Assembly (NCBI GenBank): GCA_963715985.1 | Contig: CAVQSP010000013.1 | Span: 611,795-675,794 of the forward strand | Source of the DNA: an uncultured Thermoleophilia bacterium | GTDB taxonomy: Bacteria; Actinomycetota; Thermoleophilia; UBA2241 | Length of the DNA stretch: 64,000 bases | Reading direction: 5' to 3' | Part shown: positions 32,407 through 56,600 of the stretch, piece by piece | Layout of the letters: each line of letters starts with the position of its first letter | How positions within the stretch are numbered: the stretch's first letter is position 1 | The notes under the pieces: generated by a model | What the model was told of the DNA's origin: nothing | Database searches by the model: none | What the model saw: the letters and a program-made list of their open reading frames with translations, nothing else | Position numbers and translations under genes: made by a program

Positions 32407-32598
32407 CGCGGCGGTCGCGGTCCCGGCCGATCTCCCCGGGGCCGAGCGGCGTGCCGTCCCCCCGGGACGCCGGGTGCCGTCGCCGGCGGCCGTGACCATC
32501 ACGGCCGCCGGCCTGCGGCACGTACTGTCACCAGACGGTGACATCCTCCCCTCGCGGACGTAGACTCCTGCTACCGGGGGTCGTTGGAGGGGAGCGAG

Positions 32599-36726: not shown

Positions 36727-36884
36727 GGTGGCCCCTCCTCCACTGGTGTGCGCCCCTGCGCGCGGCTCGCTCCCTACGAGCCGCTTCGTGAGTGTACGCC
36801 TTGCTGTGGTCTGCAGAGCGTTTCGTCGCCGCCGTTCCCCGGCCGTTGTCGCAGTTGTACGCTTCACTTGGGAGGGGGCATGGG

Positions 36885-39800
36885 ATGATCGCCTGTCCGT
36901 CGTGCGGGGCCCGGTTGCCCGGCGGTTCGCGCTTCTGTCTGAGCTGCGGGGCGGGGCTCGACGCGGCCGCCACCGGCCTCCCGCTCACGGAGGAGCGCAA
37001 GGTCGTCACCACGCTCTTCTGCGATCTCGTCGGCTTCACGGCGATGAGCGAGGGCTCTGATCCCGAGGACGTCGACGCCCTGCTGCGCGAGTACTCGGCG
37101 CGGGCGCGACGCGCGATCGAGGCCCACGGCGGCGTCGTGGAGAAGTTCATCGGCGACGCCGTGGTCGGAGTCTTCGGCGTGCCACGCGTGCACGAGGACG
37201 ACCCAGAGCGCGCGGTGCGCGCCGCCCTGCGCCTGATCGAGATGCTCGAGGGCATGACCCGTCCCGACGGCCCGTCGCTTCAGGCTCGCTGCGGCGTCAA
37301 CACCGGGGAGGCCCTTGTGCGCCTGGACGTCGATCCGCTCGCCGGGCTCGGCTTCCTCACCGGCGACGCCGTGAACACGGCCGCTCGGCTGCAGGCGGCA
37401 GCGCCGCCCGGCGGCGTCGCCGTCGGTGCCCTGACACACGAACTCACCAAGCGCGCCGTTATGTACGAGGAGCTGCCGGGGGTCGTCGCGAAGGGCAAGG
37501 CGGAGCCGGTCGCGGCCTGGCGGGCGGTGAGGCCCGTGGCGCGCACCGGCCTGCGCACCGCCGGGCTGACGTCCACCCGGTTTCTCGGCCGTGAGCTCGA
37601 GCTTGCGGCTCTTCACGGCGCGTTGGAGCGGGCCTCGGATGCCGCTGAGGCGCGCTTCGTGCTCGTCGTCGGCGAACCGGGCATCGGCAAGAGCCGCCTG
37701 GTTCTCGAGTTCTCGCGTGCTCTCGCTGCCTCGACCGATCTCTTCAGGTGGCGCCAGGGCCGTTGCCTCGCATACGGGGAGGGAGTCACGTTCTGGCCTC
37801 TGGGCGAGATCCTCAAGGAGCACGCCGGCATCTACGATTCGGACGATGTCGCGACCGTGGAGGCCAAGCTCGAAGCTGTGCTCCCGGAGGGCGAGGACGG
37901 GGCGTGGCTCCGCCAGCGGCTGCGTCCTCTGCTCGGCCTCACCGCGTCGCAGGCTGCCCGCGAGGAGAACTTCGCCGCATGGGCGCGCCTGCTCGAGTCG
38001 ATGGCGGGTGACCGCCCCGCGGTGCTGGTCGTAGAGGACCTGCACTGGGCCGGCGAGGCGATGCTGGCGTTCCTGGAGTACGTGCTGGCCTGCGACCTCG
38101 CAGTGCCGCTGCTGATCGTCGCCACGACCCGGCCCGAACTCCTTCGGCAGCACGAGGGGGCGCTCACGAGCCCCGCCGGTTCGGACCGGCTGCACCGGAT
38201 CACGCTGCCGAGTCTCTCGCGCACGGACACCGGGGCGCTCGTTGCCGACCTCTTCGACGGGGACCAGGCAGGTGGCGTGGGGGCCCACATCGCCGAGCTG
38301 GCCGGCGGCAACCCGCTCTACGCGGAGCAGTACGCGCGACTGCTGCTCGACGGCGGCTTCATCGCGCGGACGGGTGACACGCTGGATGTGGCAGGCACCG
38401 CGGAGCTCCCGCTGCCGAAGACGGTGCAGGCCGTGCTCGCGGCTCGTCTGGACACCCTCCCTCGCGAACACAAGGCGTTGCTCTGCGACGCCGCCGTCAT
38501 CGGCGAGACCTTCTGGCAGGGCGCTGTCGCGGAGCTGGCGGGTCGCGACTCGGGCGCCGTGGGCGAAGCCATGGCGGCGCTTGGCGCTCGTGATCTCGTG
38601 CGACCCGCGGCCGCGCCCACCATGGAGGGCGAGCCGGAGTACCTCTTCTGGCACGCCCTGGCTCGCGATGTGGCCTACGGACAGCTGCCGCGCAAGGTCC
38701 GGGCCCGCAAGCACCAGGCCGTGGCGCGCTGGATCGAAGGGCGGACAGGCGAGCGTGGCGACGAGTTCGCGGAGATCGTCGCCCATCACTACACGACGGC
38801 GCTCGACCTTGCCCGGGCCGCGCGAGATGCCGAGCTGGCTTCGTCGCTCGTCGCGCCGACCGTCGCCTGCCTCGCACGCGCCGGCGAGCGCGCCCTGCGC
38901 CTCGACGTGGCCGCGGCCGAGCGCTACTGCGCCCGCGGCCTCGAGCTCGCCGCACCCGACGCGCCCGAGAGACCCAGACTGCTCCAGCGGTGGGCTCAAG
39001 CCCTTTGGCTTCGCAGGCACTACCGCGAGGCGGCGGCAGCCTACAGGGAATCCATCGCCGGGCTGCAGGCCGCCGGCGAGAAGCGCACGGCAGCCGTCGC
39101 CATGTGCCATCTCGTCAGCGTGCTCACGTGGCTTGGCGAACCGTGCTTTGACATCACCCGAGCGGCCGTAGAGCTGCTCGCTGACGACGGGCCCTCGCCG
39201 GAGCGGGCCGAGGTGCTCGGGTTGTACGCCCTCGGCCTGATCCTGCTCGACGAGGAACCGGCGTCGGTCGTCGAGGCGGCGGACGAGGCCGTGGACATCT
39301 GCCGGCTCCTGGAGCTGCCCGAGCCGGCCATGGCCCTAAGCTGCCGCGGGTTCGCGAAGCTGCAGCTCGGTGACCTCGACGGCCTGGGTGACTACGAGCG
39401 TGCTATCGAGGCTGCGCGAGAGCAGGGGCTGGGCGTCGAACGCACAACTATCGAGCTCAACTACGCGGATCTCGTGTTCATCGTGAAGGGCGCACAGGCG
39501 CGCCTGGACGTCCTGCATGACGGCGCCGAGTTCGCACTCACGCACGGGCTGGATTCGTACGCCATCGCCTATCGCGGGACCATAGTCGCCGCACTCCTCA
39601 GTGCCGGCGAATGGGATCGGGCGCTCCGTGAGGCGGAGGAGCTGATCGTCGAGTACGACGCGCATGAGGAGCTCTGGGACGTGCTGACCATGCGGTCCTT
39701 GCAGGCGCTGATCCTCTCCGCCAAGGGGGAGGCCGGTGTGGCCCTGCCCTTTGTCTCCTGGATCGTGGACCAGGGACGTGAGAGCGAGATCGGATGGACA

Positions 39801-40313
39801 CGGATGATGGCGCTCTACGCGGGGGCGGCCGTTCATCTGAGCCTCGGCCACGCGGACGAGGGCCTGGGCCTGCTGGCGGAGTCCTTCGCGTCGCCGCGGG
39901 CCTCCGCCGCGGCACCGGACGACCTGCCGCAGGCGGTGAGAATGACCCTTATGGGCGGCGACGCGAAGCTGGCCCGACGGCTGGCGACCGAGACAAGGAA
40001 GTACATGCCGGCGAAGCTGCTGCCGCTGCAACAGCACGCGGTGGCGACGCTCGACGCGCTGTTCGCAGAGGTAGACGGGGACCGGGCGGCTGCGGCCGGC
40101 TTCGCCGACGCCGCCGCCCGCTGGCACGAGTTCGGCGTGCCCTACGAAGAGGGGCACGCCCTCCTGGGCGAGGGGCGCTGCCTGGTGGCGCTCGGAAGAG
40201 CGCCGGAGGCGGCAGCGCCCCTCGCCGCGGCCCGCGAGATCTTCGCGCGGCTCGGCGCCAGGCCGGCACTGGAGGAGACGGAGGAGTGGCTGGGGAGGGC
40301 GAGCACCTCGTGA
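36885..40313 (+). CDS. Zn-ribbon / class III cyclase / STAND ATPase / TPR protein #1
   Basis: CPSCG..FCLSCG, LFCDLVGFT, EKFIGDAV, GDAVNTAARL, GEPGIGKS, EDLHWA, GNPLYAE. Confidence 0.92.
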   Translation: MIACPSCGARLPGGSRFCLSCGAGLDAAATGLPLTEERKVVTTLFCDLVGFTAMSEGSDPEDVDALLREYSARARRAIEAHGGVVEKFIGDAVVGVFGVPRVHEDDPERAVRAALRLIEMLEGMTRPDGPSLQARCGVNTGEALVRLDVDPLAGLGFLTGDAVNTAARLQAAAPPGGVAVGALTHELTKRAVMYEELPGVVAKGKAEPVAAWRAVRPVARTGLRTAGLTSTRFLGRELELAALHGALERASDAAEARFVLVVGEPGIGKSRLVLEFSRALAASTDLFRWRQGRCLAYGEGVTFWPLGEILKEHAGIYDSDDVATVEAKLEAVLPEGEDGAWLRQRLRPLLGLTASQAAREENFAAWARLLESMAGDRPAVLVVEDLHWAGEAMLAFLEYVLACDLAVPLLIVATTRPELLRQHEGALTSPAGSDRLHRITLPSLSRTDTGALVADLFDGDQAGGVGAHIAELAGGNPLYAEQYARLLLDGGFIARTGDTLDVAGTAELPLPKTVQAVLAARLDTLPREHKALLCDAAVIGETFWQGAVAELAGRDSGAVGEAMAALGARDLVRPAAAPTMEGEPEYLFWHALARDVAYGQLPRKVRARKHQAVARWIEGRTGERGDEFAEIVAHHYTTALDLARAARDAELASSLVAPTVACLARAGERALRLDVAAAERYCARGLELAAPDAPERPRLLQRWAQALWLRRHYREAAAAYRESIAGLQAAGEKRTAAVAMCHLVSVLTWLGEPCFDITRAAVELLADDGPSPERAEVLGLYALGLILLDEEPASVVEAADEAVDICRLLELPEPAMALSCRGFAKLQLGDLDGLGDYERAIEAAREQGLGVERTTIELNYADLVFIVKGAQARLDVLHDGAEFALTHGLDSYAIAYRGTIVAALLSAGEWDRALREAEELIVEYDAHEELWDVLTMRSLQALILSAKGEAGVALPFVSWIVDQGRESEIGWTRMMALYAGAAVHLSLGHADEGLGLLAESFASPRASAAAPDDLPQAVRMTLMGGDAKLARRLATETRKYMPAKLLPLQQHAVATLDALFAEVDGDRAAAAGFADAAARWHEFGVPYEEGHALLGEGRCLVALGRAPEAAAPLAAAREIFARLGARPALEETEEWLGRASTS
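40092..40282 (+). repeat. ~190-bp repeat shared by 3' ends of four cyclase-STAND genes (other copies ~43464-43655, ~46966-47157, ~51721-51912)
   Basis: GCCGGCTTCGCCGACGCCGCCGCCCGCTGG.ACGA.TTCGGCGTGCCCTACGAAGAGGGGCACGCCCT...GCCCGCGAGATCTTCGCGCGGCTCGG nearly identical in all four. Confidence 0.95.
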
Positions 40314-43300
40314 GCGAGACCGTCGTCTGCGCGGCGTGCGGCGCGGAGAACCCGGCCGGCTTCAGGTTCTGCGGCCAGTGTGCTGCGCCGCTCGCCGCTG
40401 TGCCTGTCGTCGCCGAGGAGCGCAAGGTCGTCACCACGCTCTTCTGCGATCTCGTCGGCTTCACGGCGATGAGCGAGGCTGCCGACCCCGAAGACGTCGC
40501 CGCTGTCGTGCGGCAGTACCACGCTGCCGCGCGTAAGGTGATCGAGTTGCACGGCGGCACGGTCGAGAAGTTCATCGGCGACGCCGTGGTCGGGGTCTTC
40601 GGCGTCCCCGCGGTGCACGAGGACGATCCAGAGCGCGCTGTGCGTGCCGGCCTGCGTCTGGTGCTGGCGGTCGAGGGCATGACCCGTACGGACGGCGCCC
40701 CGCTCGAGGTCCGCGTCGGCGTCGATACCGGCGAAGCTCTGGTGCGCCTCGACGTCGACCCCGCCTCCGGCCGCGGCATCCTCACCGGCGACGCCGTGAA
40801 CACGGCGGCGCGCCTACAAGCAGCCGCGCCGCCGATGGGCGTCGTCGCCGGTGAGGCGACGCACGAGCTCACCCAGCGCGCCATCGTGTACGAGCAGCTC
40901 CCGCCCGTCGCCGCCAAGGGCAAGGCGGAGCCCGTCGCGGCCTGGCTGGCGCGTGCCCCGGTGGCGCGCGGCGCGGCGCGGATGGACCGGGCGGTCCTCT
41001 CTCCACTCGTCGGGCGTGAGGCGGAGCTTGCCCGTGTCACGAGCGTGTTCGAGGGAGCGGTGGCGTCGTCCGAACCGCGGTTCGCGCTGCTCGTTGGCGA
41101 GCCGGGCATCGGCAAGAGCCGCCTGATCGCCGAGCTCGCGGAGGTCGTGGACCGACGTCCCGAGCTTGTGGCCTGGCGCGAGGGCCGTTGCCTGCCGTAC
41201 GGCGAGAACGTGACCTTCTCGGCGCTCGCCGAGATCGTCAGGGCTCACGCCGGTATCCCGGATGCCGCGGATGAGGCGGCCACGCGATCCCGGCTCGAGG
41301 CGGCGCTCCCCGACAGCGAGGACCGTGCGTGGCTGCTCAACCGCTTGGGCGCGCTTCTCGGCCTGGAAGCTCCTGCGGGCACGCGAGAAGAGAACTTCGC
41401 TGGATGGACACGCTTCCTGGAGACGGCCGCCGCGAGCCGACCCACTGTGCTGGTGTTCGAGGACCTGCACTGGGCCGACGAAGCGCTTCTCGCTTTTCTC
41501 GACTACTTCGCGTCGCACGTTGCCGACGTGCCCGTGATCGTCCTCGCCTGCACCCGTCCCGAGCTGTTCGAACGCGACCCGACGTTCGCTCGAGAGAGTC
41601 CCCGTCTCGAGCGTGTCGACCTCAAGCCGCTCTCGCGCGCCGAGACTGCGAGCCTGGTCGACGCAGTCCTGTCGGAGACCGGGAGTCGCGCGGGCGCCGA
41701 GATAGCCGCACGTTGCGGCGGCAATCCCTTCTACGCTGAACAGTCGGCGCGCTACCTCACCGACACGGCGCACGCCACCGTGCTGCCGGGCTCGGTGCAG
41801 GCGGTGATCGCCGCCAGGCTTGATGCCCTCCCGGCCGCGCACAAGGAGCTCGTGGGCGACGCGGCGGTGATCGGCCCGGTGTTCTGGGACGGGGCTCTGA
41901 CCGAGGTCGCCGAACGCGAGCCCGCCGACGTGAGGCAGGCCGTCGACGACCTGGTCTCGAGACAGCTCTTCCGTCGAGTACGCTCTCCGACGACAGCGCT
42001 GACGGGCGTGCACGAGATCGCCTTCGTGCATGCGCTCGCCCGCGACGTCGCGTACCGCCAGCTGCCGCGTGCAGTGCGCGCCCGGAAGCACGCCGCCACG
42101 GCGCGCTGGCTCGAGCAGAAGGCCGCCGATCGTCCAGAGGATCTCGCCGAGACGCTGGCGCATCACTACGTGACGGCACTCGGGTTGGCTCGGGCATGCG
42201 GCGAGCATGGCCTCGAGGCGACGCTGATCGACCCCGCGGTCCGCTACTTGACCGCATCCGGCGACCGCGTCTTCAACGCGGACCTCGGAGCCGCCGAGCG
42301 CTACTATCGCGATGCTCTGGACATCGCGCCGGCGGGCGCGGCCGGTCGCGCGGCGCTGCAGGCGCGTCTCGGTGAGGTGGTCCTCTGGGGCGGTCGCGAC
42401 GCTGAAGCGGCGGACCTTCTGGAAGAAGCGGCGTTGCGGCTCCGCGCGGCCGGCGACGTACGCCGTAGTGCGGTCGCCCTTGTGTGCCTGGCTCGCGCCC
42501 GTGAGAACGTCGCCGGCTCTGCAGCGCTTGGGGGCTACTTCCGTGACGCCTTGGCGCTTCTGGACGACGACGGTCCCTCGCCCGAGCTTGTGCGCGTGCT
42601 CGTCGAGTGGGGCCGGCTGAAGGCCAATCTGGACGAGCCGGAGCTGGGGCTCGCCGCTTTCGAGAGCGCCCTCGAGGCCGCGCGACGGATCGGCGCGCCG
42701 GTGCCGGCGCTCGCGCTCAATCTGCGCGGCATCGTCCGGAGGGATCTCGGTCTGCCAGGGTATGTGACCGACTTCCGCCGCTCCCTCGAGCTGGCGCAGG
42801 AGCAGGGTCTGGGCGTGGACCTTGGACGCGTGTGGGGCAACTACGCAGCGTTCCTCGGCCAGCAGGAGGGACCGGGGCGCGCTCTCGAAGAGCAGGCGCG
42901 CGCCCTGGCGTTCCTGAAGTCACGGGGTCTCACGTCGCTCGTGGACAGCGAGATCCCCCGGCACGTCGAGTCACTTCTGTATGCGGGGCGCTGGGCGGAG
43001 GCCGTCGCCGAGGCCTACGCGCTGGAGTCTGCGGCGGACGTGAACGTCCCCGCCTCCACGTTGTTCCTCGTGACCGTGATGCGGCTGCTCGTGCAGTCCT
43101 GGCAGGGCGTACCGGCCGAGGGCGGCTGCGAAGGTCGGTCGCTGTCCGACGCCTCGCGAGACGGCTCGTTCGACGTCGACGTGGCCTTCGGGTCACTGAT
43201 CGCCGAGCTGGTCTCGGTATGGTCATCGCCCCATCAGGCGACGGCGCTCCTCGAGCGCATGGTGGCGACGATGACGCCGGGCATCGCCGTCTGGTGCGCG

Positions 43301-43711
43301 GGGCTCATGCCCGACGCAGGTCGGCTGGCCCTTCGTGGCGCCGCCCCCGAGCTGGCCGAACGCCTCCTCGGCTGCGTTCAGGGTCCGCTGCCGGTCGCCG
43401 AGCTCGCTCGCCAGAGCCTCACTGCGCTGCTCGCCGAGGCGCATGGGGAGCTGGAGGCGGCGACGGCCGGCTTCGCCGACGCCGCCGCCCGCTGGCACGA
43501 GTTCGGCGTGCCCTACGAAGAGGGGCACGCCCTGTTCGGCCAGGGGCGCTGCCTGGTGGCGCTCGGCAGAGCGCCGGAGGCGGCAGCGCCCCTCGCCGCG
43601 GCCCGCGAGATCTTCGCGCGGCTCGGCGCCAGGCCGGCGCTGGCGGAGACGGATGAGTGGCTTGCCGGGTCAGGCATCTCGCACATCGCCGACGACGGTG
43701 GCGCGCCGTGA
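40310..43711 (+). CDS. Zn-ribbon / class III cyclase / STAND ATPase / TPR protein #2
   Basis: Same motifs; GTGA overlap with #1. Confidence 0.92.
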   Translation: MSETVVCAACGAENPAGFRFCGQCAAPLAAVPVVAEERKVVTTLFCDLVGFTAMSEAADPEDVAAVVRQYHAAARKVIELHGGTVEKFIGDAVVGVFGVPAVHEDDPERAVRAGLRLVLAVEGMTRTDGAPLEVRVGVDTGEALVRLDVDPASGRGILTGDAVNTAARLQAAAPPMGVVAGEATHELTQRAIVYEQLPPVAAKGKAEPVAAWLARAPVARGAARMDRAVLSPLVGREAELARVTSVFEGAVASSEPRFALLVGEPGIGKSRLIAELAEVVDRRPELVAWREGRCLPYGENVTFSALAEIVRAHAGIPDAADEAATRSRLEAALPDSEDRAWLLNRLGALLGLEAPAGTREENFAGWTRFLETAAASRPTVLVFEDLHWADEALLAFLDYFASHVADVPVIVLACTRPELFERDPTFARESPRLERVDLKPLSRAETASLVDAVLSETGSRAGAEIAARCGGNPFYAEQSARYLTDTAHATVLPGSVQAVIAARLDALPAAHKELVGDAAVIGPVFWDGALTEVAEREPADVRQAVDDLVSRQLFRRVRSPTTALTGVHEIAFVHALARDVAYRQLPRAVRARKHAATARWLEQKAADRPEDLAETLAHHYVTALGLARACGEHGLEATLIDPAVRYLTASGDRVFNADLGAAERYYRDALDIAPAGAAGRAALQARLGEVVLWGGRDAEAADLLEEAALRLRAAGDVRRSAVALVCLARARENVAGSAALGGYFRDALALLDDDGPSPELVRVLVEWGRLKANLDEPELGLAAFESALEAARRIGAPVPALALNLRGIVRRDLGLPGYVTDFRRSLELAQEQGLGVDLGRVWGNYAAFLGQQEGPGRALEEQARALAFLKSRGLTSLVDSEIPRHVESLLYAGRWAEAVAEAYALESAADVNVPASTLFLVTVMRLLVQSWQGVPAEGGCEGRSLSDASRDGSFDVDVAFGSLIAELVSVWSSPHQATALLERMVATMTPGIAVWCAGLMPDAGRLALRGAAPELAERLLGCVQGPLPVAELARQSLTALLAEAHGELEAATAGFADAAARWHEFGVPYEEGHALFGQGRCLVALGRAPEAAAPLAAAREIFARLGARPALAETDEWLAGSGISHIADDGGAP

Positions 43712-46700
43712 GCAAGCCCCTCACGTGTCCCGCTTGTCACGCGGTGAACCCGGCCCCTGCGCGCTTCTGCATGACGTGCGGTCACGCCCTGGGGCCGCCC
43801 GGACCGGCGCCGACGCGCACGCCCCCGTCGAGGAGCGCAAGACCGTCACCACGCTGTTCTGCGACCTGGTGGGCTTCACGGCGATGAGCGAGCAGGCGGA
43901 CCCGGAGGACGTCGACGCCTGCCTGCGCGCTTACGGTGCCGCTGCCCGCGCCGTGATCGAGCGCTACGGCGGCTCCGTGGAGAAGTTCATCGGCGACGCC
44001 GTGGTCGGCGTGTTCGGCGTCCCGGTGGTGCACGAGGACGACGCCGAGCGCGCCGTGCGCGCCGCCCTGCGCCTGCTCCAGGAGCTCGCCGGGCTCCGGC
44101 GCCCGGACGGAGCCTCTCTGCAGGTCCGCGTCGGCGTCAACACCGGCGAGCTCGTCGTGGCCCTGGACGCCGACCCCGTGCTCGGCGATGGTCTGGTGCG
44201 CGGGGACGCCATCAACACGGCCGCGCGCCTCGAGGCGTCGGCGGCGCCCGGCTCGGTCGTCGTCGGGGCTCTGACCCGCAGGCTGACCGAGCGCATCATC
44301 GCCTACGAGAGCCTCCCTGCGGCGCCGGTCAAGGGAAAGGCGCGGCCTTTGAGCGCTGGCGCGCCCTGCGCCCGGTCGCTCGCGTCGGCGAGGAGACGAG
44401 CGCGGACCGTCTCTCTCCGTTCGTCGGCCGCGACAGCGAGCTCGCCTTCCTCGTCAGCCTCTTACGCCGTGCGATCGACGGGCGCACGCCCCAGACCGCT
44501 CTCATCCTCGGCGACCCCGGCATCGGCAAGAGCCGCCTGGTGCGCGAGCTCTTCGCCGTGGTCGACGCCGGCACAGAGATGATCTACTGGCGTCGCGGCC
44601 GCTGCGTGCCCTACGGCGACGGCCGCACGTTCTGGGCGCTGCGCGAGATCGTCCGCGCGCACGCCGGCATCCTCGAGACGCACGATGCGGACACCGCGGC
44701 GGAGCTCCTCGAGAGCGTCGTCGAGGAGGGGCCGGACCACGGCTGGCTCTGCGATCGGCTCCGGCCGCTCGTCGGACTCGACGCGGCCGAGGCCGAGCCG
44801 CGGCAGAACTACGCCGCCTGGCTCAGGTTCCTCCGCGACGTGGCCACTCGCCGGCCGCTCGTGCTCGTCGTGGAGGACCTCCACTGGGCCGACGAGGCGC
44901 TGCTGGCGTTCCTCGAGTACGTATCGCTCGAGGCGGCCGGAGTGCCGCTGCTGACCATCGCCACCGCACGCCCGGCCGTGTTCGAGCATCATCCGTCGTT
45001 CGCGGCGTCGGGCGGCAGAGTGACGCGCATGTGGCTCGAGCGCCTGTCCGACGACGAGACACACAGCCTCGTCGCCTCGCGCCCCGAGATGGGGGGCCGC
45101 GACCCGGCCACCGTCGAGCTGGTCGTGCGCAGCGCCGAGGGCAACCCGTTCTTTGCCGAGGAGCTCGCCAGCCTGCTCGCCGAGCGCGCCTCGGGGGACT
45201 ACGCCGGGGGTGGTGAAGGTGCTCTTCCGCAGTCCGTCCAGGCGGTGATCGCGGCGCGCATCGACGCCCTGTCACCGCCGGCCAAGTCGACACTGGCGGA
45301 CGGCGCCGTGATCGGCGTCAGGTTCTGGCGTGGACCCCTGCTGCCGATGGGGGGCCGGGACGCGGCGGCAGTGGACGAGAGTCTGCGCGAACTCGTCGAC
45401 CGGCAGTTGCTGCGCGCCGTCCGCCAGTCCTCGCTCGACGACGAGGACGAGTTCGTCTTCCGCCACGGCATGATCCGCGAGGTCGCCTACCACGAACTGC
45501 CGAGGGGCGCGCGGGCGCAGAAGCACGCGGTGTTCGCCCGGTGGCTGGAGGCCAGGTGGGTGCCCGCGCTCGCGGCGACCTCAGTGACATCCTCGCCGGC
45601 CACTTCGCCGCGGCCGCCGAGCTGGCGCGAGCCGCCGGCCACGCGGCGCTGGAGGCGGCGGTCACGGACGAGGCCGTCGACTACCTCTCGGCCGCGGGCG
45701 ACAGGGCCCTGGGCCTGGACGCGAGCGCGGCGGCGCAGCTGTACGCTCGCGCGCTGGATCTCGCCGGCCCTGGGCGCGGCGACCGCGCCGCGCTCCTCTC
45801 CCGCGCGGCGGAGGCGCGGTTCCGCGAGGGCCGCTACCGCGAGTCTGCGGCCGCGTTGCTGGAGTCGGCGGTCGGGCTCAGCGCCGTCGGCGACCGCCGC
45901 GCCGCGGCGCTGGCGGCGGCGCGGCGGGCCGACGTCCTCTACGCCCTCGGCGACCCGGGGGTGACGCTGCAGCTGGAGGGGGCGCTGTCGCTGCTCGAGC
46001 GGGGAAGCTCCCTGCGCGGAGACCGTGGCCGTGCTGGGTAGGCTGGGGCGGGCGTTGTGGCTCGGCGGCGACCCTCACGGCGGCCTCGAGAAGCTGGAGC
46101 AGGCCCTGGAAGTGTCGCGGGCGCTTGAGCTGCCCGAGCCCGTCCTCTTCCTCGGGTACCGCGGCGGCATCCGCGCCATCCTGGGCGACGTGAACGGGCT
46201 CGACGACTACCTCGAGGGCCTGCGCCTCGCCAACGAGCGGGGGCTGGCGCGCGAGGCGGCGCTGCTCACCTTCAACTACGCCGACGCGTTGCTCTCGTAC
46301 CGCGGCCCCCGCGCCGCCGCGGACGCGCTCGTCTCTGGAATGGACACCGCGCGGCGGCGGCGTCTGGAGGCGCTCGGGGCGCGGCCGGCGCGGGACGGCG
46401 AGGCCTCGACGGGGTCCATGGGCGAGTGGGACGCGGAGACCGCACGCCGCCTCACCGTCAACCTTGTCGAGGCACTCGGCATGATGGGCGAGTGGGACGA
46501 GGCGCTGGCGAAGGCGGCGGAGCTGATGCCTGAGCTCGAACGTAGCGAGGCCGGTTCCGATCTCGTGATCGTGCGCACCCAGGAGGCGGTGCTCCGCGTG
46601 TGCAGAGGAGAGGCGCAGCTGGCGGATCCCTTCATCGCCTGGCTCGAGCAGTGCGGCCTCGAGAGCGAGATCCCCTGGATCGCGGCGTACGCTCTGCTCG

Positions 46701-47188
46701 CCGCGACGCCCGTGCGGTACGGCCTCGGCGACGCCGGCGCCGCTCTCGGCCTTCTGGCCCAGTGGGAGGCCCGGCCGCGGCCCGGAAGCGGGCCCAACTA
46801 CGTGGCCTACCTGCCCGAGGCGGTGCGCACGGCGCTGGCCGCCGGCGACGACGTGCTGGCCGGGCGGCTCGCGAGCGGTGTCGAGAGCATCCTGCCGATG
46901 CAGCGCAACGTCCTCGCGTCGTTGCAGAGCCTGGTGAGCGAGCGGGCGGGAGCACCGGAAGCGGCGGCGGCCGGCTTCGCCGACGCCGCCGCCCGCTGGT
47001 ACGACTTCGGCGTGCCCTACGAAGAGGGGCACGCCCTCTTCGGGCAGGGGCGCTGCCTGGTGGCGCTCGGCAGAGCGCCGGAGGCGGCAGCGCCCCTGGC
47101 CGCGGCCCGCGAGATCTTCGCGCGGCTCGGGGCCAGGCCGGCGCTGGCGGAGACGGACGCGGCCCTGCGGCGCGTCGCATCCGCCTGA
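43708..47188 (+). CDS. Zn-ribbon / class III cyclase / STAND ATPase / TPR protein #3 (apparent frameshifts near 43810, 44345, 45555, 46005)
   Basis: CPACH..FCMTCG, LFCDLVGFT, GDAINTAARL, GDPGIGKS, EDLHWAD; pieces in successive ORFs; GTGA overlap with #2. Confidence 0.85.
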
Positions 47189-47269
47189 CCGCCGCGACCT
47201 CGTAGCATGCTGAGCGCAACGTGGGCCGGCGGGTACGCAAGCGTCCGTTTCGGCCCCGCCGAGCCATGC

Positions 47270-47328
47270 TTGCGCCACCCAGCACTGGCGTGCTATATGA
47301 ACACTGTGTGTTCAATCTGTACAGATTG
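47270..47328 (+). promoter_or_regulatory. Promoter TTGCGC-18bp-TATATG followed by two overlapping palindromes (putative operator)
   Basis: TGAACAC-tgt-GTGTTCA (47298-47314) and perfect CAATCTGTACAGATTG (47313-47328). Confidence 0.65.
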
Positions 47329-47336
47329 GTGACGAC

Positions 47337-48566
47337 ATGTTGATCCCACGCACGCTCGAGGCCCGTCTGCAGGAGTCGGCCGGTCCGTTCCCCGTCCTGT
47401 TCCTCACGGGTCCCCGGCAGAGCGGCAAGACGACGCTCGCACGCATGGCGTTTCCCGACTACCTGTACGTCTCACTCGAGGATCCGCAGCGCAGGGCGGA
47501 GGCGCTGGAGGACCCGCGGGCGCTCCTTCGACGGGTCGCGGGGGCGCCCGGAGTGATCTTCGACGAGGCACAGCGCGCGCCGGAGCTCTTCTCCTACATC
47601 CAGGGCGTGGTGGACGAGCGACGCGGCGGACCGTTCGTGCTCACCGGGTCGCAGAACTTCCTCCTCTCGGAGAAGATCACGCAGTCGCTCGCCGGCCGCA
47701 CCGCGGTGTTCGAGCTGCTGCCGTTCTCCGTGGCCGAGCTTGTGCGACGCCCGGCCCTGGAGCCGGAGGACTTCTGCAGGGTGCGCGGCGGCGCGGGCGG
47801 CGGGGCGACTCCGACACGGCCATCGCTACCCCTCGAGGATCTCGTGTTCGTCGGGCTCTATCCCGCCATCCACGACCGCGGCGTCGACGCCGCCCAGTGG
47901 CTGCGAAGCTACGTCAGGACCTACGTTGAGCGTGACGCGCGCGCCGTCGGCGCCATCGGCGACCTCGACACGTTCTTGCGCTTCCTCGGCCTGTGTGCAG
48001 GGCGCAGTGGGCAGCTGCTGAATCTCTCGGCGCTGGGGGCCGAGGCCGGGGTGAGCCACAGCACCGCGCGCAGGTGGCTCTCCGTGTTGCGGGCGAGCTA
48101 CATCGTGACGCTCCTGGCGCCGCACCACGAGAACTTCAGCAAGCGCATCGTGAAGACGCCGAAGCTCTACTTTCTCGATACGGGTCTGCTGTGCGCCTTG
48201 CTCGGCGTGCGCGATGCCGACGACCTCTGGAACCACCCGCTGCGCGGCGCCCTGTTCGAGACGTTCGTGGTGGCCGAACTGACGAAGCTCTTCGTTCACT
48301 GCGGCGAGCGGCCCCGCCTCTTCTTCTGGCGTGACTCACACGGCACCGAGGTCGACGTGCTCGTCGATCTCGGTCGTGAGCGCGTGGCCGTCGAGGTCAA
48401 GTCCGGCCTGACGGTGGCCGCAGACGCGTTCCGCGGTCTGGAGGCCTACCAGCGGCTACGCCACGCGAGTGGGGGCGAGTCCGGAGGCAGCGTGCTGGTC
48501 TACGGCGGCGACGAGTGGTACGAGCGTCGCGGGCACGATGTGCGCCCGTGGTGGGCATGTACGTAG
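47337..48566 (+). CDS. AAA_14 ATPase with DUF4143 (PD-(D/E)XK-like) domain
   Basis: GPRQSGKTT, IFDEAQ, LTGSQ, SLAGR, KTPKLYFLDTG, FWRD..G.EVD...VEVKSG. Confidence 0.9.
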   Translation: MLIPRTLEARLQESAGPFPVLFLTGPRQSGKTTLARMAFPDYLYVSLEDPQRRAEALEDPRALLRRVAGAPGVIFDEAQRAPELFSYIQGVVDERRGGPFVLTGSQNFLLSEKITQSLAGRTAVFELLPFSVAELVRRPALEPEDFCRVRGGAGGGATPTRPSLPLEDLVFVGLYPAIHDRGVDAAQWLRSYVRTYVERDARAVGAIGDLDTFLRFLGLCAGRSGQLLNLSALGAEAGVSHSTARRWLSVLRASYIVTLLAPHHENFSKRIVKTPKLYFLDTGLLCALLGVRDADDLWNHPLRGALFETFVVAELTKLFVHCGERPRLFFWRDSHGTEVDVLVDLGRERVAVEVKSGLTVAADAFRGLEAYQRLRHASGGESGGSVLVYGGDEWYERRGHDVRPWWACT

Positions 48567-48585
48567 GCGAGGGATGGGAACCGCG

Positions 48586-51500
48586 ATGAGTGTGTGTGCC
48601 GCGTGCGGCGCCGAGAACCCGGCGCGGGCCAAGTTCTGTAACGAGTGCGGCGCCCAGCTGGCCGCCCCGCACGCCGCGGCGGATGAGCGCAAGATGGTGA
48701 CCACCCTCTTCTGCGACCTCGTCGGCTTCACGGCGATGAGCGAGGCCGCCGACCCCGAGGACGTCGACGCCCTGCTGCGCGAGTACTCGGCCCGGGCGCG
48801 TCGCGTCATCGAGTCGCACGGCGGCACCGTGGAGAAGTTCATCGGCGATGCCGTCGTCGGCGTCTTCGGCGTGCCCGCCGTGCACGAGGACGACCCGGAG
48901 CGCGCCGTGCGCGCAGCCCTGCGCCTGATCGAGGCGCTCGAAGGCATGGCGCGGCCCGACGGCAGCCCGCTCGAGGCGCGCTGCGGCGTCAACACCGGCG
49001 AGGCCCTGGTCCGCCTCGACGTCGCCCCCGGGAGCGGCGACGGCTTCCTCACCGGCGACGCCGTGAACACGGCGGCGCGGCTTCAGGCAGCCGGCCCACC
49101 CGGCGGCGTCGCCGTCGGCGCGCTGACCCACCAGCTCACGCATCGCGCCATCGTCTACCAGGATCTGCCGCCGGTCGCGGCCAAGGGCAAGGCCGAGCCG
49201 GTTCCCGCCTGGCTCGCCACCGCGCCCATGGCCCGCATGGGCGCCGATGCCGAGCGTCGGCAGCTCACTCCCCTGGTCGGTCGCGCGGCCGAGACCGCCG
49301 CGCTTCGCGCCCTTGTCGACAGCGTCATCGCGGCCCGATCATCGCGATCCGTCCTCATCGTCGGCGAGCCCGGCATCGGCAAGACCCGCCTCGTCCAGGA
49401 GCTCTTCGCCCACGTCGACGCCCTGCCCGAGATGGTCACCTGGCGACAGGGCCGCTGCCCGTCGTACGGCGAGAGCATCGCGTTCTGGGCGCTCGCCGAG
49501 ATCGTCAAGGCCCATGCCGGCATCCTCGACGGGGATGACGGTGCCGCCGCAGCCGACAAGATCTCGGCCGCCGTCCTCGACGGTCCCGATCACACCTGGA
49601 TGGTGAACCGCCTGCGGGCTCTCGTGGGTCTCGAGGCACCCCCGGCCGAGAGGGAGGAGAACTTCACGGCCTGGCTGCGCTTCTTCGAGCAGGTGGCCAA
49701 CGACGAGCCGTTCGTACTGGTGGTCGAGGACCTGCACTGGGCCGACGACGGCCTGCTCGCCTTCGTCGAGCATCTCGCGCGCCATGCCGGGGCCGCGCCG
49801 CTCCTCCTACTCGGCACGGCACGTCCCGAGCTGCTCGAGACCAATCCGACGCTCGGTGCAAACGGCGGCGGGTTGACCCGCATGTCGCTGGGCCCGCTCA
49901 CCTCGGCGGAGACGGAGCAGCTGGTGGCAGACGTGCTGGGTGATGGCGAGGCCGAGAGCCGGCAGATCGCCGACATCGTCGCGCGCTGTGCCGGCAACCC
50001 GTTCTTCGCGGAGGAGTCGGCGCGCCTGCTCGCCGACCAGCGGCCCGGGGAGCCAGTGCCTGCCTCCGTCCAAGCCGTGATCGCCGCCCGCCTTGACGCG
50101 CTGCCCGGCGAGGAGAAGACGGCCTTGGCTGATGCCGCCGTCGTCGGGGAGGTCTTCTGGGACGGCGCGCTCACGGAGCTGGGCCGGCGCGAGCGCGTCG
50201 AGGTGGATGCCGCGCTGGGCGCTCTCCACGACAAGCACCTGGTGAGACGGGCGCGCGAGTCCTCAATGGCCGGCGAGAGCGAGTTCACGTTCACGCACGC
50301 CCTGACGCGCGACGTGGCCTACGGCACGCTGCCGCGCCGGGCCCGCGCGCAGAAGCACGCGCAGACGGCCGCCTGGCTGGAAGGCCGGGCGGGCGGCCGC
50401 CTCGAGGATGTGGCCGACCTCCTCGCCCATCACAGCGCCACGGCCTTCGAGCTCGCCGAGGCCGTCGGCGACGGCGAGCTGGCCCAGCGTTGCCGCAAAC
50501 CGGCCGTCACGGCCCTCCGGCTCGCCGGCGATCGTGCCGTGCGGCTCGATGTCGAGGCGGCGGAGAGACTCCTCGCCCGGGCGGCGGGTATCTGCTCTGA
50601 CGAGGACCCGCAACGGCCCGCACTCTATGAGGAGTGGGGCAGGTCGCTGCTCCTGCGCAGTCGCTACGAAGATGCCAGAGTCGCTCTCGAGGAATCGACT
50701 CGCGGCTTCCTTGCGAGCGGACGAAGACCAGAGGCGGCGATGGCCATGATCTCGCTGGAGGTGGCGCAGTTCTTTCTGGGCGGACGGGACTGGCGCGCGG
50801 TCCTCGACGAGGCGATGCTGCTGACCGACGATGAGCCCTGTGGCCAGACTCGGGCCCACGTCCTGACCGCCATCGCCAGCGGCCGGATCGTGCTGGGCGA
50901 CTACACCGGCGGGCTCGACTGGATCAAGCGCGCCGTCGATATCTACGGCCGCTGCGGGCTGGAGGTTCCCCTTCGTCTCCAGGGGTGGCAAGCGCAGGCG
51001 GAATGCGGGCTCGGCGACCGCGGTGCGGGCGACAGGTTGCTTTCGGTGGCGCGTGCGATGAGGGAGGAGGGGCTGGGTCGTGACGCGATGGTCGCCTACT
51101 CCAACTACGGGATCTCGATGTACCCCATCGAAGGCCCTCGCGCCTACGACAGCGCGCAGGAAGGTCTCGACTTCTTGCGCGGTCGCGGCATCTCCGAGGA
51201 GGGGATCCTGGCCATGAACCGTTGCTCTGGCCTCGTATCCGCCGGGCGCTGGGACGAGGCCCGGCGCAGCATGGAGGAGTCTCGCCCCTGGCTGCAGCAG
51301 CAGGACAATCAGCTGGCGTTCTGCTTCTGGTGGGTGAATCGTGCCGAGCTCCTGACACTCACAGGAGAGGGACGGGAGGCGGTCGAATGCGCCCGCGAGG
51401 CGGACGAGCGCGCGCAGCAGTGGGACGACGTGATACGTGTCCATGGTCGTGCGACCCTCGTCACGGCGCTGGCGTGCGCTGGCGACCGGAGGCGAGCGAT

Positions 51501-51933
51501 CGAGCTACTGGCCGGGATCGCGAGTGTCCCGCACCCGAGGGGGTTCCAGGGCTACGAGGAGCTGATCCCCCAGCTGATGCGACTCGCTCTGCATTGCCGG
51601 GAGGCCGCACTGGCCGAACAGCTGATCGCGGGCATCGAGCCCGATGTGCCTCTGCTCGAGCACGTGTTGGTGACGGGACAAACCCTACTGGCGGAGGCGC
51701 GCGGTGAGCACGAAGCCGCGGCGGCCGGCTTCGCCGACGCCGCCGCCCGCTGGCACGAGTTCGGCGTGCCCTACGAAGAGGGGCACGCCCTCCTCGGGCA
51801 GGGGCGCTGCCTGGCGGCGCTCGGCAGAGCGCCGGAGGCGGCAGCGCCTCTCGCCGCGGCCCGCGAGATCTTCGCGCGGCTCGGGGCCAAGCCGGCGCTG
51901 GCGGAGGCGGACGAGTGGCTGACGCACACGTGA
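48586..51933 (+). CDS. Zn-ribbon / class III cyclase / STAND ATPase / TPR protein #4
   Basis: CAACG..FCNECG, LFCDLVGFT, GDAVNTAARL, GEPGIGKT, EDLHWAD, GNPFFAEE; alternative start 48574. Confidence 0.92.
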   Translation: MSVCAACGAENPARAKFCNECGAQLAAPHAAADERKMVTTLFCDLVGFTAMSEAADPEDVDALLREYSARARRVIESHGGTVEKFIGDAVVGVFGVPAVHEDDPERAVRAALRLIEALEGMARPDGSPLEARCGVNTGEALVRLDVAPGSGDGFLTGDAVNTAARLQAAGPPGGVAVGALTHQLTHRAIVYQDLPPVAAKGKAEPVPAWLATAPMARMGADAERRQLTPLVGRAAETAALRALVDSVIAARSSRSVLIVGEPGIGKTRLVQELFAHVDALPEMVTWRQGRCPSYGESIAFWALAEIVKAHAGILDGDDGAAAADKISAAVLDGPDHTWMVNRLRALVGLEAPPAEREENFTAWLRFFEQVANDEPFVLVVEDLHWADDGLLAFVEHLARHAGAAPLLLLGTARPELLETNPTLGANGGGLTRMSLGPLTSAETEQLVADVLGDGEAESRQIADIVARCAGNPFFAEESARLLADQRPGEPVPASVQAVIAARLDALPGEEKTALADAAVVGEVFWDGALTELGRRERVEVDAALGALHDKHLVRRARESSMAGESEFTFTHALTRDVAYGTLPRRARAQKHAQTAAWLEGRAGGRLEDVADLLAHHSATAFELAEAVGDGELAQRCRKPAVTALRLAGDRAVRLDVEAAERLLARAAGICSDEDPQRPALYEEWGRSLLLRSRYEDARVALEESTRGFLASGRRPEAAMAMISLEVAQFFLGGRDWRAVLDEAMLLTDDEPCGQTRAHVLTAIASGRIVLGDYTGGLDWIKRAVDIYGRCGLEVPLRLQGWQAQAECGLGDRGAGDRLLSVARAMREEGLGRDAMVAYSNYGISMYPIEGPRAYDSAQEGLDFLRGRGISEEGILAMNRCSGLVSAGRWDEARRSMEESRPWLQQQDNQLAFCFWWVNRAELLTLTGEGREAVECAREADERAQQWDDVIRVHGRATLVTALACAGDRRRAIELLAGIASVPHPRGFQGYEELIPQLMRLALHCREAALAEQLIAGIEPDVPLLEHVLVTGQTLLAEARGEHEAAAAGFADAAARWHEFGVPYEEGHALLGQGRCLAALGRAPEAAAPLAAAREIFARLGAKPALAEADEWLTHT

Positions 51934-52086
51934 CGACGGACCCGCCTTGTCTTCGGCGATGATGGTAGTAGCGTGTGACTCAACGCACGGCTCCGGAGGG
52001 GGGACCACAATGAATGCACGCGTGGTGGCGAGACCCGTTGAGCCCGTCTCCCGTCTCGTCGCGACTGCTGCAAGAGGGAGGAACTC

Positions 52087-56485: not shown

Positions 56486-56600
56486 GTCCCGACTTTATCG
56501 GGCGTGAGCGTGGGAGTCCACGCATCGCGTGACCCTCAAGACCTCGTCCTCCGCCATCCTTCAAAGTAGAGTAGTGGTGCATCCGGACCGGGAGGGCCGA

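Follow-up and report, generated by a model that had tools for sequence, protein, structure and literature searches.

The mycobacterial Mclx proteins (Rv0386, Rv1358, Rv2488c) combine a class III cyclase with an ATPase and a LuxR-type HTH, and the sections of the published account considered here attribute adenylyl cyclase activity to Mclx1, along with a guanylyl side activity, and describe frameshift pseudogenes as common among strains (PMC4452763). In plant NLR clusters and in fungal NLRs with highly conserved repeats, clustered STAND-type receptors exchange sequence between paralogs, vary in content between relatives and, as far as the portion of the work used here goes, have sensor repeats that evolve faster than the NTPase (PMC13449251). 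Concerted evolution of duplicated prokaryotic genes leaves paralogs within a genome more alike than orthologs between genomes in the affected tract, and in the part of the study drawn upon here it concerns whole genes and long times (PMC6053082). In Treponema tprK, according to a partial description, conserved sequence beside variable segments guides non-reciprocal recombination between copies. Further segmental gene-conversion systems of bacteria are pilE/pilS and vlsE. In systems of this kind, silent partial cassettes are copied into one expression site at high frequency, resulting in antigenic variation.

The window analysed here, a stretch of 64,000 nt from contig CAVQSP010000013.1 (GCA_963715985.1) of an uncultured Thermoleophilia bacterium (genome label G000), contains four tandem genes that encode, according to Pfam, a Zn-ribbon, a class III cyclase, an AAA_16 STAND ATPase (NOD) and TPR repeats. 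The array and its neighbours are composed as follows:

36885..40313, forward strand: gene 1, Zn-ribbon, class III cyclase, AAA_16 STAND ATPase and TPR (Pfam); start ATG at 36885
40310..43711, forward strand: gene 2, architecture as gene 1 (Pfam); GTG start overlapping the TGA stop of gene 1
43708..47188, forward strand: gene 3, architecture as gene 1, broken in the assembly (Pfam in three frames); GTG start overlapping the stop of gene 2
47337..48566, forward strand: AAA_14/DUF4143 ATPase interrupting the array (Pfam; PADLOC candidate family PDC-S01, E 1e-103)
48574..51933, forward strand: gene 4, architecture as gene 1 (Pfam, alignment); start probably ATG 48574 or 48586
52087..53076, forward strand: gene immediately following gene 4, whose product carries a pair of cyclic-nucleotide-binding domains (PF00027 in two stretches at E 5e-40, Pfam)
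56508..58256, forward strand: MFS transporter fused to a cyclic-nucleotide-binding domain (Pfam)

The GTGA stop/start overlaps that the original prediction had described between genes 1 and 2 and between genes 2 and 3 are present at 40310-40313 and 43708-43711. All four genes match PF00211 with 61.6-67.9 bits (cut-off 21.9), and the closest solved class III cyclase is 2w01 (E 1e-20). The residues D47, K87, D91, D161, N164 and R168 are invariant among 40 family members and make up the complete class III catalytic set of two metal-binding Asp, a Lys/Asp substrate pair and the transition-state Asn and Arg, in roles that we presume from the class III cyclase literature and read against the 2w01 alignment. 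The AAA_16 matches (76.5-92.1 bits, cut-off 32.6) are accompanied by Walker A and B residues that are likewise invariant in the 40 members (G263, G266, G268, K269, D385), and the putative C-terminal repeats give weak TPR_2/TPR_12 matches below the Pfam gathering scores. The protein encoded at 52087..53076 is a candidate receiver of the cyclase product.

Like the Mclx proteins in the sections considered here, the array proteins carry an N-terminal class III cyclase fused to a large P-loop ATPase and form a small paralogous family; unlike in Mclx, the N-terminus is a zinc ribbon, the C-terminus a TPR-like cap and the genes stand in tandem, a separation drawn from domain content and gene arrangement. 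An identity as Mclx/LAL-type cyclase-ATPase-LuxR proteins was rejected, as Pfam gave no GerE match in genes 1-4; AAA_16 and GerE do occur together in a separate neighbouring gene (32584-34812). With Pycsar (PycC plus a cNMP-binding effector) the locus shares the class III cyclase fold and a cNMP-binding protein encoded nearby; within these 1100-residue proteins, however, matches to the PycC models (E 1e-16 to 1e-18) are confined to the cyclase domain and the neighbour lacks an effector domain, so that this assignment was dismissed as well. The TIGR03903 TOMM kinase/cyclase fusion has a similar core of cyclase and AAA ATPase, and it too was discarded: the proteins score 212-233 bits where the cut-off is 705.75, and Pfam shows no kinase domain. 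PADLOC returned matches to the generic cyclase fold only and no model matching the NOD-TPR part, and nothing points to an immune role for the array genes.

In the present assembly, gene 3 is not an intact gene. Its domains are spread over three frames (Pfam, tblastn pieces), with indels relative to its ortholog G024_C10 changing the frame near 43809, at 44345-44350, at 45553-45555 and near 46000, and a stop at 45962-45964 lies within a shifted stretch. At all four places related metagenome contigs carry the frame-restoring state. Elsewhere in the window, a solute-binding gene has an apparent frameshift, and the gene at 24438-28470 probably has one as well.

The ends of the array genes contrast with their middles. 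The segments concerned are:

36988..37542, forward strand: gene 1 cyclase segment with a paralog-like history; tracts identical to genes 2 and 4, breakpoint to an ortholog-like NOD near 37542
40413..40967, forward strand: gene 2 cyclase segment, breakpoint near 40967
48680..49234, forward strand: gene 4 cyclase segment, breakpoint near 49234
40092..40283, forward strand: tail copy 1, homogenised 3' segment of 192 nt that codes for the final TPR-like pair (BLAST, codon alignment; breakpoint at codon column 1407)
43463..43654, forward strand: tail copy 2 (BLAST, codon alignment, breakpoint scan)
46967..47158, forward strand: tail copy 3 (BLAST, codon alignment; in-tail sites shared with gene 2 only versus the ortholog only, 28:3)
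51721..51912, forward strand: tail copy 4 (BLAST, codon alignment, breakpoint scan; weak Pfam TPR_12 match below the gathering score)

The claim that the last ~190 bp are nearly identical in all four genes, even at synonymous sites, was borne out. BLAST of the region against the window paired 40081-40292, 43427-43662, 46942-47159 and 51685-51921 with 91.5-96.0% identity over 201-236 nt, and outside the tails the four genes reach 65-74% where BLAST aligns them at all. In the codon alignment the 192-nt cores are 94-96% identical and the bodies 49-59%. Among codons for identical residues, the six array pairs differ synonymously at 2-6 of 58-61 in the tail (3-10%) versus 117-226 of 280-485 in the body (40-53%; Fisher p 4e-6 to 2e-11), so that synonymous divergence is far lower in the tail than in the bodies. 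A further copy, 89% identical, was found on another contig of the genome (G000:C10:293388-293576). The tail has no significant likeness to the neighbouring AAA_16 and GerE protein (best E 0.47) and resembles TPR_12 clusters by language-model features (score 0.96).

As a control for constraint, the synonymous-difference fraction was compared at columns where at least 85% of the genes share the residue. Within the G000 array it was 0.09 for the tail, 0.13 for the cyclase start and 0.45 for NOD, and between genomes 0.32, 0.24 and 0.48, respectively; synonymous divergence of the tail is lowered beyond residue conservation, as gene conversion would have it. In three of four cross-species ortholog pairs the tails are ordinary (13/47, 13/52 and 14/55 synonymous differences, 25-28%), and the tail is therefore not frozen in general. 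Moreover, the four tails vary at 18 sites, of which 11 change the residue, 7 are synonymous and 14 are singletons, a pattern which, judged from the sequences, is that of recent common descent and not of tight constraint. Compared with one another, the four tails reach 94-96% identity, and compared with their orthologs 82-93%; for the bodies the order is reversed (49-59% versus 68-75%); in the tail, paralogs are closer than orthologs between genomes, as in concerted evolution.

At the other end of the genes, the identical 5' stretch reported for genes 1 and 2 is real (36992-37048 = 40417-40473, p<0.0005 by permutation, with 17 polymorphic sites covered); read by eye, the alignment shows it at ~64 nt. 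The "long near-identical tracts" between genes 1 and 4 were overstated: one identical tract of 37 nt exists (37063-37099 = 48755-48791, p<0.0005), and identity is 87% over 300 nt and 81% over the cyclase part. Maximum-chi-square triplet scans with 500 permutations (p floor 0.002), which regional rate differences can mislead, placed breakpoints at codon columns 463-474 and 1393-1407 in 8 of 8 tests (p<=0.002), positions that coincide with the cyclase/NOD border and the start of the tail. In these scans, sites shared with the paralog only versus the ortholog only numbered 28:3, 29:8, 27:6 and 16:7 in the tails and 128:409, 139:367, 152:424 and 97:489 in the bodies. On the cyclase alignment, AU tests reject the groupings of gene 2 with G019_C133 (p-AU 0.0056), of gene 4 with G018_C18 and G034_C1b (0.0064) and of G019_C325a with G034_C1a (0.0029), with one further orthogroup at 0.06, and the cyclase tree joins gene 1 with gene 4 (support 96/89). 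Taken as comparisons of sequence, these results support the notion that the tail and the cyclase 5' part would have histories other than that of the NOD-TPR middle.

The middles behave differently. As predicted, the TPR regions are barely alignable (23-33% protein identity), yet the idea of sensor cassettes diversifying in place did not hold up, as the NOD-TPR blocks go back to old, separate lineages. The NOD+TPR tree contains starred orthogroups for every array gene, with which separate NOD and TPR trees agree: gene 1 pairs with G015_C3, gene 2 with G019_C133 (75% nt identity over the body in the codon alignment), gene 3 with G024_C10 and gene 4 with G018_C18 and G034_C1b. All four blocks are thus matched, with strong support, by orthologs from congeneric species at 63-75% nt identity. 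TPR is less conserved than NOD in eight of nine ortholog pairs, and no tandem repeats were found in the sensors, which lack the highly conserved internal repeats of fungal and plant NLR sensors. Array content and order differ between congeners, and the same orthogroups lie beside different neighbours in G000, G019, G027, G034, G001 and G024.

From our point of view, these data are probably best explained by gene conversion, in which old and distinct sensor genes exchange short homologous tracts at their two conserved ends. The four genes would be old paralogs of one receptor family, in which a zinc ribbon at the N-terminus is followed by the output, a class III cyclase of adenylate type, then by an AAA_16 STAND ATPase acting as switch and a divergent TPR sensor, and the conserved tail supplies the final TPR-like pair. 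By analogy with related families, ligand binding to the TPR sensor may trigger nucleotide-dependent STAND assembly, which would bring the cyclase domains into active dimers, and the cyclic nucleotide produced could be read by the neighbouring cNMP-binding proteins. Since identity between paralogs appears to extend far enough for homologous recombination nowhere but in the cyclase 5' part and the tail, both ends would be overwritten again and again by brief non-reciprocal exchanges, in the G000 array recently, and the NOD-TPR middles, presumably too diverged for pairing, would be inherited as blocks. Recombination in the conserved ends may, in addition, bring a sensor block into a different slot and alter array content, which fits the differing arrays of the congeners and one chimeric gene.

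The latter, G019_C133, is the one clear case with a junction in the conserved part. Its 5' end is closest to gene 4 and its NOD-TPR block is orthologous to gene 2: the zinc-ribbon end is 78-81% identical to gene 4 versus 61-72% to gene 2, the gene behaves as an ortholog of gene 2 from about column 440 on, and the breakpoint lies at column 474 (p<=0.002). As such, the proposal of recombination between conserved flanks stood in part, namely for exchange at the flanks, varied array content and one chimera, and not for a full swap of sensor blocks from slot to slot.

One could speculate, although we would not expect it, that the cyclase 5' part and the 192-nt tail are portable homology arms through which whole NOD-TPR blocks are exchanged between slots and between co-occurring congeners, so that the arrays would form a shared recombining receptor pool, a bacterial counterpart of NLR cluster dynamics with second-messenger output. 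Such exchange would explain why tails and cyclase starts are 91-96% identical across species (neighbouring orthologs ~75%), as well as the chimera and the differing make-up of the arrays in every species examined.

Less probable still is that the homogeneity of the tails stems from interspecies spread, with members transferred among co-occurring congeners and recombining via their conserved ends, in which case the consensus-like tails would represent a recently spread allele. The tails of G019_C133 and G027_C2c are 91-93% identical to those of G000 with flanking orthologs at ~75%, and conversion within one genome cannot account for them. They belong to a cross-species cluster of tails at >=89% (the four of G000, G019 C133, C294 and C325a, G027 C2c, G008 C75 and G014 C139), while flanking single-copy orthologs are saturated between species (synonymous difference 0.37-0.45 in 9/9 comparisons). 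Gene 2 and G019_C133 differ synonymously at 5/57 codons in the tail and 269/727 in the body, and at its cyclase start G019_C133 matches G027 and G001 genes with 91-96% identity. Against this stands that no mobile-element context was seen and that plasmid records hold distant relatives only (all 557 matching records below 60% identity, none covering 80% of the query). In addition, 192 columns are too few to infer donor or direction. The tail tree is star-like, with the four G000 tails near the genus consensus on very short branches without a long shared stem, a shape that lineage-specific slow evolution of some tails would also give and that counts against the recombination reading too. The tail alone is short for a tree: enforcing orthology jointly costs 23.6 lnL (p-AU 0.066) and single-clade tests give p 0.14-0.44, too little to settle it.

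The extra-strong homogenisation is peculiar to the G000 array. In a survey of 57 tails from G000 and 19 congeners, biased toward similar copies as the relatives' tails were gathered by likeness to that of gene 2, median within-genome identity was 93.8% in G000 and 64-83% in the ten other genomes with at least two tails sampled, against a between-genome median of 72.4% (95th percentile 85.9%). With G000 left out, within-genome pairs still average 75.2% versus 71.7+-1.1 after label shuffling (p=0.001).

It is further conceivable, but unlikely, that the tail (perhaps also the cyclase start) has a function at the nucleotide level, e.g., as a structured RNA stabilising or regulating the polycistronic transcript, and that selection keeps its synonymous sites. 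The four tails fold at -128 to -138 kcal/mol compared to -98.5+-11.9 for 297 windows of 199 nt taken elsewhere in these genes, of which no more than 2.7% are as low; the predicted fold comprises three hairpins with perfect stems of 10-11 pairs, in which the rare codons AGA and GCA occur, and tail synonymous divergence is also below that of conserved NOD columns genus-wide (0.32 < 0.48). However, the hairpins are not maintained on 38 tails, where 78.8% of cells pair compared to 77.6% in shuffles, both sides change in only 9 cells and several pairs are broken in 19-23 of the 38 sequences. There is no Rfam match at E<=1, and such a function leaves unexplained why the G000 array alone reaches 94-96% and why non-synonymous tail differences are as common as synonymous ones.

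An artefact, in which metagenome assembly or polishing merged reads of several copies or strains over the repeat, has very little to recommend it. The source bin (completeness 88.8%, contamination 7.3%), the several apparent frameshifts in the window, four of them in gene 3, and the disagreement with related contigs at those four places would be compatible with it, but the tails are not identical and carry the copy-specific differences described above, the contrast between conserved tail and diverged body recurs in independently assembled genomes of other species, and the 5' mosaic tracts and the cyclase discordance are independent of the tails. Equally remote, and disfavoured as sole cause by the conserved-column control on the sequences at hand, would be purifying selection on an essential C-terminal module combined with strong G+C codon bias and no recombination: the tail is conserved family-wide (found in 26 of 79 distant loci, with a median residue identity of 56% where found, near the cyclase domain with 58% and above NOD with 45% and TPR with 29%) and has a GC3 of 0.92-0.95, but equally conserved NOD columns show synonymous differences of 0.45-0.50, ortholog tails of other species differ at a quarter or more of identical-residue codons, and most differences among the four tails change the residue.

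Returning to exchange at the ends, the array resembles the plant and fungal NLRs, within the scope of the account cited above, in its clustered STAND-type receptors, paralog exchange, varying content and fast-evolving sensors. It differs in that the exchanged tracts are the conserved termini and not the sensor repeats, in that its sensors are old orthogroups without near-identical internal repeats, and in having a cyclase instead of a death/effector domain as output. The guidance of non-reciprocal recombination by conserved sequence is shared with tprK as partially described; unlike in the segmental gene-conversion systems, every copy is full-length, the genes stand in an operon-like row and exchange is seen on evolutionary time scales only. 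Compared to concerted evolution of whole genes, as far as the source goes, here it is limited to ~190 nt at the 3' end and to a portion of the 5' domain, and it is strong in one of 11 genomes with at least two tails sampled.

Overall, the evolutionary process is familiar and the gene family showing it is new. The array provides a clean, quantifiable case of how a bacterial STAND receptor family evolves, in which recombination would keep the output and the C-terminal module interchangeable and the sensors diverge as separate lineages that are re-sorted among loci. When metagenome genomes from this group are annotated, the near-identical ends are likely spots for errors of assembly and binning. 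If the exchange between slots and species is true, this would single out the tail as a module of cyclase-STAND proteins that matters for function and has gone unstudied, and the arrays would offer a testable route by which bacteria build repertoires of intracellular sensors without mobile elements.

Genes 1-4 share a single architecture, namely a zinc ribbon, a class III cyclase (PF00211), an AAA_16 STAND ATPase (NOD) and a helical stretch that matches TPR weakly, and all are encoded on the + strand within 36885-51933, in a metagenome-derived bin of 4.35 Mb and 22 contigs (88.8% complete, 7.3% contaminated, ~70% G+C) whose relatives in the public collection are Thermoleophilia/Gaiellaceae bins. 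The locus is laid out as follows:

upstream of the array, AAA_16-LuxR regulator
34911-36867, -, family-5 extracellular solute-binding protein gene (SBP_bac_5) upstream of gene 1, in two frames split near 35650
36885-40313, +, gene 1 (ATG start at 36885)
40310-43711, +, gene 2
43708-47188, +, gene 3, frames broken in the assembly
47337-48566, +, AAA_14/DUF4143 ATPase (DUF4143a), between genes 3 and 4
about 48574-51933, +, gene 4
52087-53076, +, protein of two cNMP-binding domains, downstream of the array
53224-54543, +, second DUF4143 ATPase (DUF4143b), past the cNMP-binding gene
downstream of DUF4143b, opposite strand to the array, PLP decarboxylase
56508-58256, +, MFS transporter fused to a cNMP-binding domain, downstream

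The two GTGA overlaps noted among genes 1-3 are present in the sequence. Operon signals were uninformative (0 promoter-like sites; 6 terminator-like sites compared to 4.5 ± 2.2 in shuffles). A + strand ORF (35650-36888) that seems ATGA-coupled to the start of gene 1 was rejected as an antisense shadow of the minus-strand SBP_bac_5 gene; its first codon position has a G+C fraction of 0.94-0.97. DUF4143a (E 1e-103) and DUF4143b (E 1e-120) both match PDC-S01, a candidate defence family in PADLOC. Cyclic-nucleotide-binding proteins are abundant around the array, as besides the two-domain protein and the MFS fusion a cNMP-binding-like match at 30465-30890 (-) resembles residues 8-154 of the 52087 protein at 53%.

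Almost identical 3' ends had been noted for all four genes, and a self-BLAST bears this out with 91.5-96.0% identity over 201-236 nt, compared to 65-74% in the other aligning parts. In an alignment this segment, hereafter the tail, forms a block of ~195 columns with abrupt edges, and when 22 family members were codon-aligned under protein guidance, its 192-nt core (40092-40283, 43463-43654, 46967-47158 and 51721-51912) is 94-96% identical across genes 1-4 while the remainder of the genes, the bodies, reaches only 49-59%. At the protein level, the cyclase is 74-81% identical, the NOD 45-52%, the TPR part 23-33% and the tail 91-95%. With regard to the 5' region, the identical stretch between genes 1 and 2 is real (p<0.0005), being found both by a Sawyer-type run test and in the alignment. 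For genes 1 and 4 a 37-nt identical stretch was likewise found (p<0.0005), but "long near-identical tracts" is too strong a description for 87% identity over 300 nt. The run test is blind to the tails, which hardly vary across the five copies, and detected only the two 5' tracts. A search for internal highly conserved repeats with Tandem Repeats Finder gave 0 rows in 36800-52000.

The fifth of these copies lies on contig C10; it is 89% alike and ends an intact paralog. Additional paralogs, matching over several frames and apparently broken, lie at C15:86.0-90.7 kb, C9:86.7-90.6 kb, C18:5.7-9.3 kb and C8:184.7-186.1 kb, and the C9 tail resembles those of the array at only 73%. The window itself holds a sixth, distant member of the family (24438-28470, +), which shares 28% identity with gene 4. 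Its ORF 24438-27410 encodes two cyclase domains and an AAA_16 domain, and a continuation in another frame (26917-28470) encodes MalT-like TPRs, so that the gene probably carries a frameshift. Directly upstream of it, 18900-24356 (+) encodes a protein of 1818 residues consisting mostly of FG-GAP-like repeats (12 matched stretches).

The likeness of the tails extends to synonymous sites, as had been noted. Among same-residue codons of the tails, 2-6 of 58-61 differ synonymously, compared to 117-226 of 280-485 among those of the bodies (all six pairs, Fisher p 4e-6 to 2e-11). When the comparison was confined to conserved columns, in which at least 85% of the genes have the same residue, the synonymous-difference fraction within the array was 0.09 in the tail, 0.13 in the cyclase start and 0.45 in the NOD, and between genomes 0.32, 0.24 and 0.48, respectively. 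Single-copy neighbours compared with three other species gave 0.37-0.45 in 9/9 comparisons, which is essentially saturated. Of four cross-species ortholog pairs, three have ordinary tails (13/47, 13/52 and 14/55), the exception being gene 2 and G019_C133, a family gene of the congeneric genome G019 (5/57). The 18 variable sites among the four tails comprise 11 non-synonymous and 7 synonymous ones, and 14 are singletons. Silent sites and residues are thus equally alike, as would be expected from recent common descent and not from tight constraint.

The tail is present in many genomes of the same genus, in several copies apiece. In a survey of 57 tails from the source genome and 19 congeners, which is biased since tails were gathered by likeness to that of gene 2, between-genome pairs showed a median identity of 72.4% (95th percentile 85.9%). 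The within-genome median was 93.8% in the source genome and 64-83% in the ten other genomes with at least two tails, where maxima were ≤90%. With the source genome left out, within-genome pairs still average 75.2% compared to 71.7 ± 1.1 for shuffled labels (p=0.001), which reveals a weak general tendency towards concerted evolution or recent duplication that is strong in the source genome only. The closest between-genome pair in the survey (95.3%) belongs to two other species (L024, G029:C184; L025, G023:C206); both are only 79% like the source-genome tails, and L025 has TAG where the alignment has a conserved GAG.

It had further been anticipated that array content varies among relatives, and indeed its make-up differed in every species looked at:

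source genome: LuxR-type regulator, solute-binding gene (-), genes 1, 2 and 3, DUF4143a, gene 4, cNMP-binding gene, DUF4143b
G019: gene 3-type gene straight after the regulator; gene 2 ortholog between DUF4143a and DUF4143b
G024: gene 3-type gene straight after the regulator
G027: gene 3-type gene straight after the regulator; a pair of family genes followed by DUF4143a and the cNMP-binding gene; no gene 4
G034: three-gene array with the gene 4 ortholog in the middle

The DUF4143 ATPases are stable landmarks, and the cyclase genes between them vary among species. G019_C133 occupies the slot held by gene 4 in the source genome. Its zinc-ribbon end is 78-81% identical to gene 4 versus 61-72% to gene 2, and from about column 440 it is a gene 2 ortholog (breakpoint at column 474).

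Different parts of the genes also appear to have separate histories. The NOD+TPR tree contains the starred orthogroups gene 1 with G015_C3, gene 2 with G019_C133, gene 4 with G018_C18 and G034_C1b, and gene 3 with G024_C10, the latter adjoining G019_C235a and G027_C2x; separate NOD and TPR trees recover the same orthogroups. The cyclase columns conflict with this tree: AU tests, which used the groups of the NOD+TPR tree and were preceded by a quick cyclase tree, reject gene 2 with G019_C133 (p 0.0056), gene 4 with G018_C18 and G034_C1b (0.0064) and G019_C325a with G034_C1a (0.0029), and give p 0.06 for gene 1 with G015_C3. In the cyclase tree only gene 3 stays with its ortholog (100/100), and genes 1 and 4 are sisters (96/89). 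The tail tree is star-like and its single-clade tests are not significant (p 0.14-0.44); constraining all four orthogroups jointly costs 23.6 lnL (p-AU 0.066), compared to 1.4 for grouping the four source-genome tails.

Within-genome conversion fails to explain one aspect of the data, namely the likeness of tails and cyclase starts across species. The source-genome tails are 91-93% identical to those of G019_C133 and G027_C2c, the bodies of which are 54-75% identical to the source-genome genes, and 89-92% identical to tails on G008 C75 and G014 C139; in its cyclase start, G019_C133 shares 91-96% identity with G027 and G001 genes. Two explanations can account for this, namely that (i) a subset of the ends evolves very slowly, or (ii) the ends also move between species. 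The four tails sit near the genus consensus on very short branches, and 192 columns are too few to separate the two. With regard to a plasmid link, a search of plasmid records returned only distant relatives.

Maximum-chi-square scans of triplets of a gene, an in-genome paralog and an ortholog placed breakpoints at codon columns 463-474 and 1393-1407, i.e. at 37542, 40967 and 49234 and at the tail starts, with 8/8 tests reaching the lowest p that 500 permutations allow (p<=0.002). Scans of this type can be inflated by rates that differ between regions. The ratio of paralog-only to ortholog-only site matches is 28:3, 29:8, 27:6 and 16:7 in the tails and 128:409, 139:367, 152:424 and 97:489 in the bodies. 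A reading based on rates alone requires that the tails of all four source-genome genes were near-static and that those of their orthologs in three or four other species changed.

An RNA or DNA element that keeps the synonymous sites alike has a low probability. The tails do have a far more stable predicted fold than the rest of these genes (MFE 2.5-3.3 SD below other windows), but the hairpins lack compensatory change, covariation across 38 tails being at shuffle level, and Rfam gave no match for the tail. The predicted folds (40092-40290, 43463-43661, 46967-47165 and 51722-51920) consist of three G+C-rich hairpins, including one 10-pair stem and an 11-pair outer stem enclosing a 7-8-pair inner stem; the pairs are not conserved genus-wide, and the rare codons AGA and GCA sit in hairpin stems.

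An assembly artefact is unlikely to be the main cause of the tail identity, since copy-specific differences persist among the four tails and independent assemblies of other species display the same contrast between tail and body. Among the metagenome pieces listed (32 of ~1,700), no long one bridges a tail, and the runs consequently neither support nor contradict the tail sequences; metagenome "skip" joints with sides of 20-40 nt were left out. Gene 3 differs from its ortholog by single-base changes near 43809, 44345, 45553 and 46000, which result in three frames and a stop at 45962. In four wetland metagenome runs, contigs that are 97-99% alike have the frame-restoring state at each of these places; at 44350, two of the runs, X1 and X3, have contigs that agree with the assembly. 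Gene 3 is hence intact in close relatives, and its breaks represent either strain-specific decay or assembly errors. As the window holds at least one other frameshifted gene (the solute-binding gene at ~35650) and probably a further one (24438-28470), we gave these breaks no evolutionary weight. The idea that gene 3 is a pseudogene whose tail was kept alike without selection was dropped because of the unbroken related contigs, and a diversity-generating retroelement seems unlikely, the variable tail sites not being restricted to adenines (A involved in 5/18).

All 40 aligned family members retain the Walker motifs, the four zinc-ribbon cysteines and the cyclase residues D47, K87, D91, D161, N164 and R168, the roles of which we presume, and the cyclase domain matches class III cyclases of known structure. 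The tail looks like a TPR_12-type pair and is conserved family-wide; it was found in 26 of 79 distant loci, with a median residue identity of 56%. LAL regulators presumably carry such a C-terminal motif, but a likeness of the tail to the end of the adjacent AAA_16-LuxR protein was discarded (best E 0.47). By analogy with STAND ATPases and class III cyclases, a ligand would induce STAND assembly and thereby a cyclase dimer, which may signal to the cNMP-binding neighbours.

The architecture as such is already known, as rhizobial and Streptomyces replicon relatives are annotated "adenylate/guanylate cyclase domain-containing protein" or "AAA family ATPase". The best-studied relatives, the mycobacterial Mclx proteins, end in a LuxR domain (PMC4452763), unlike genes 1-4, which have none. 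Bacterial paralogs are likewise known to undergo gene conversion (PMC6053082). No description of recombining cyclase-STAND arrays was found in the open-access literature searched, and the terms "cyclase", "gene conversion" and "recombination" are absent from the text of PMC13581612. The novelty lies in the instance, a STAND receptor array of which both ends are homogenised and the sensor blocks are re-sorted among species.
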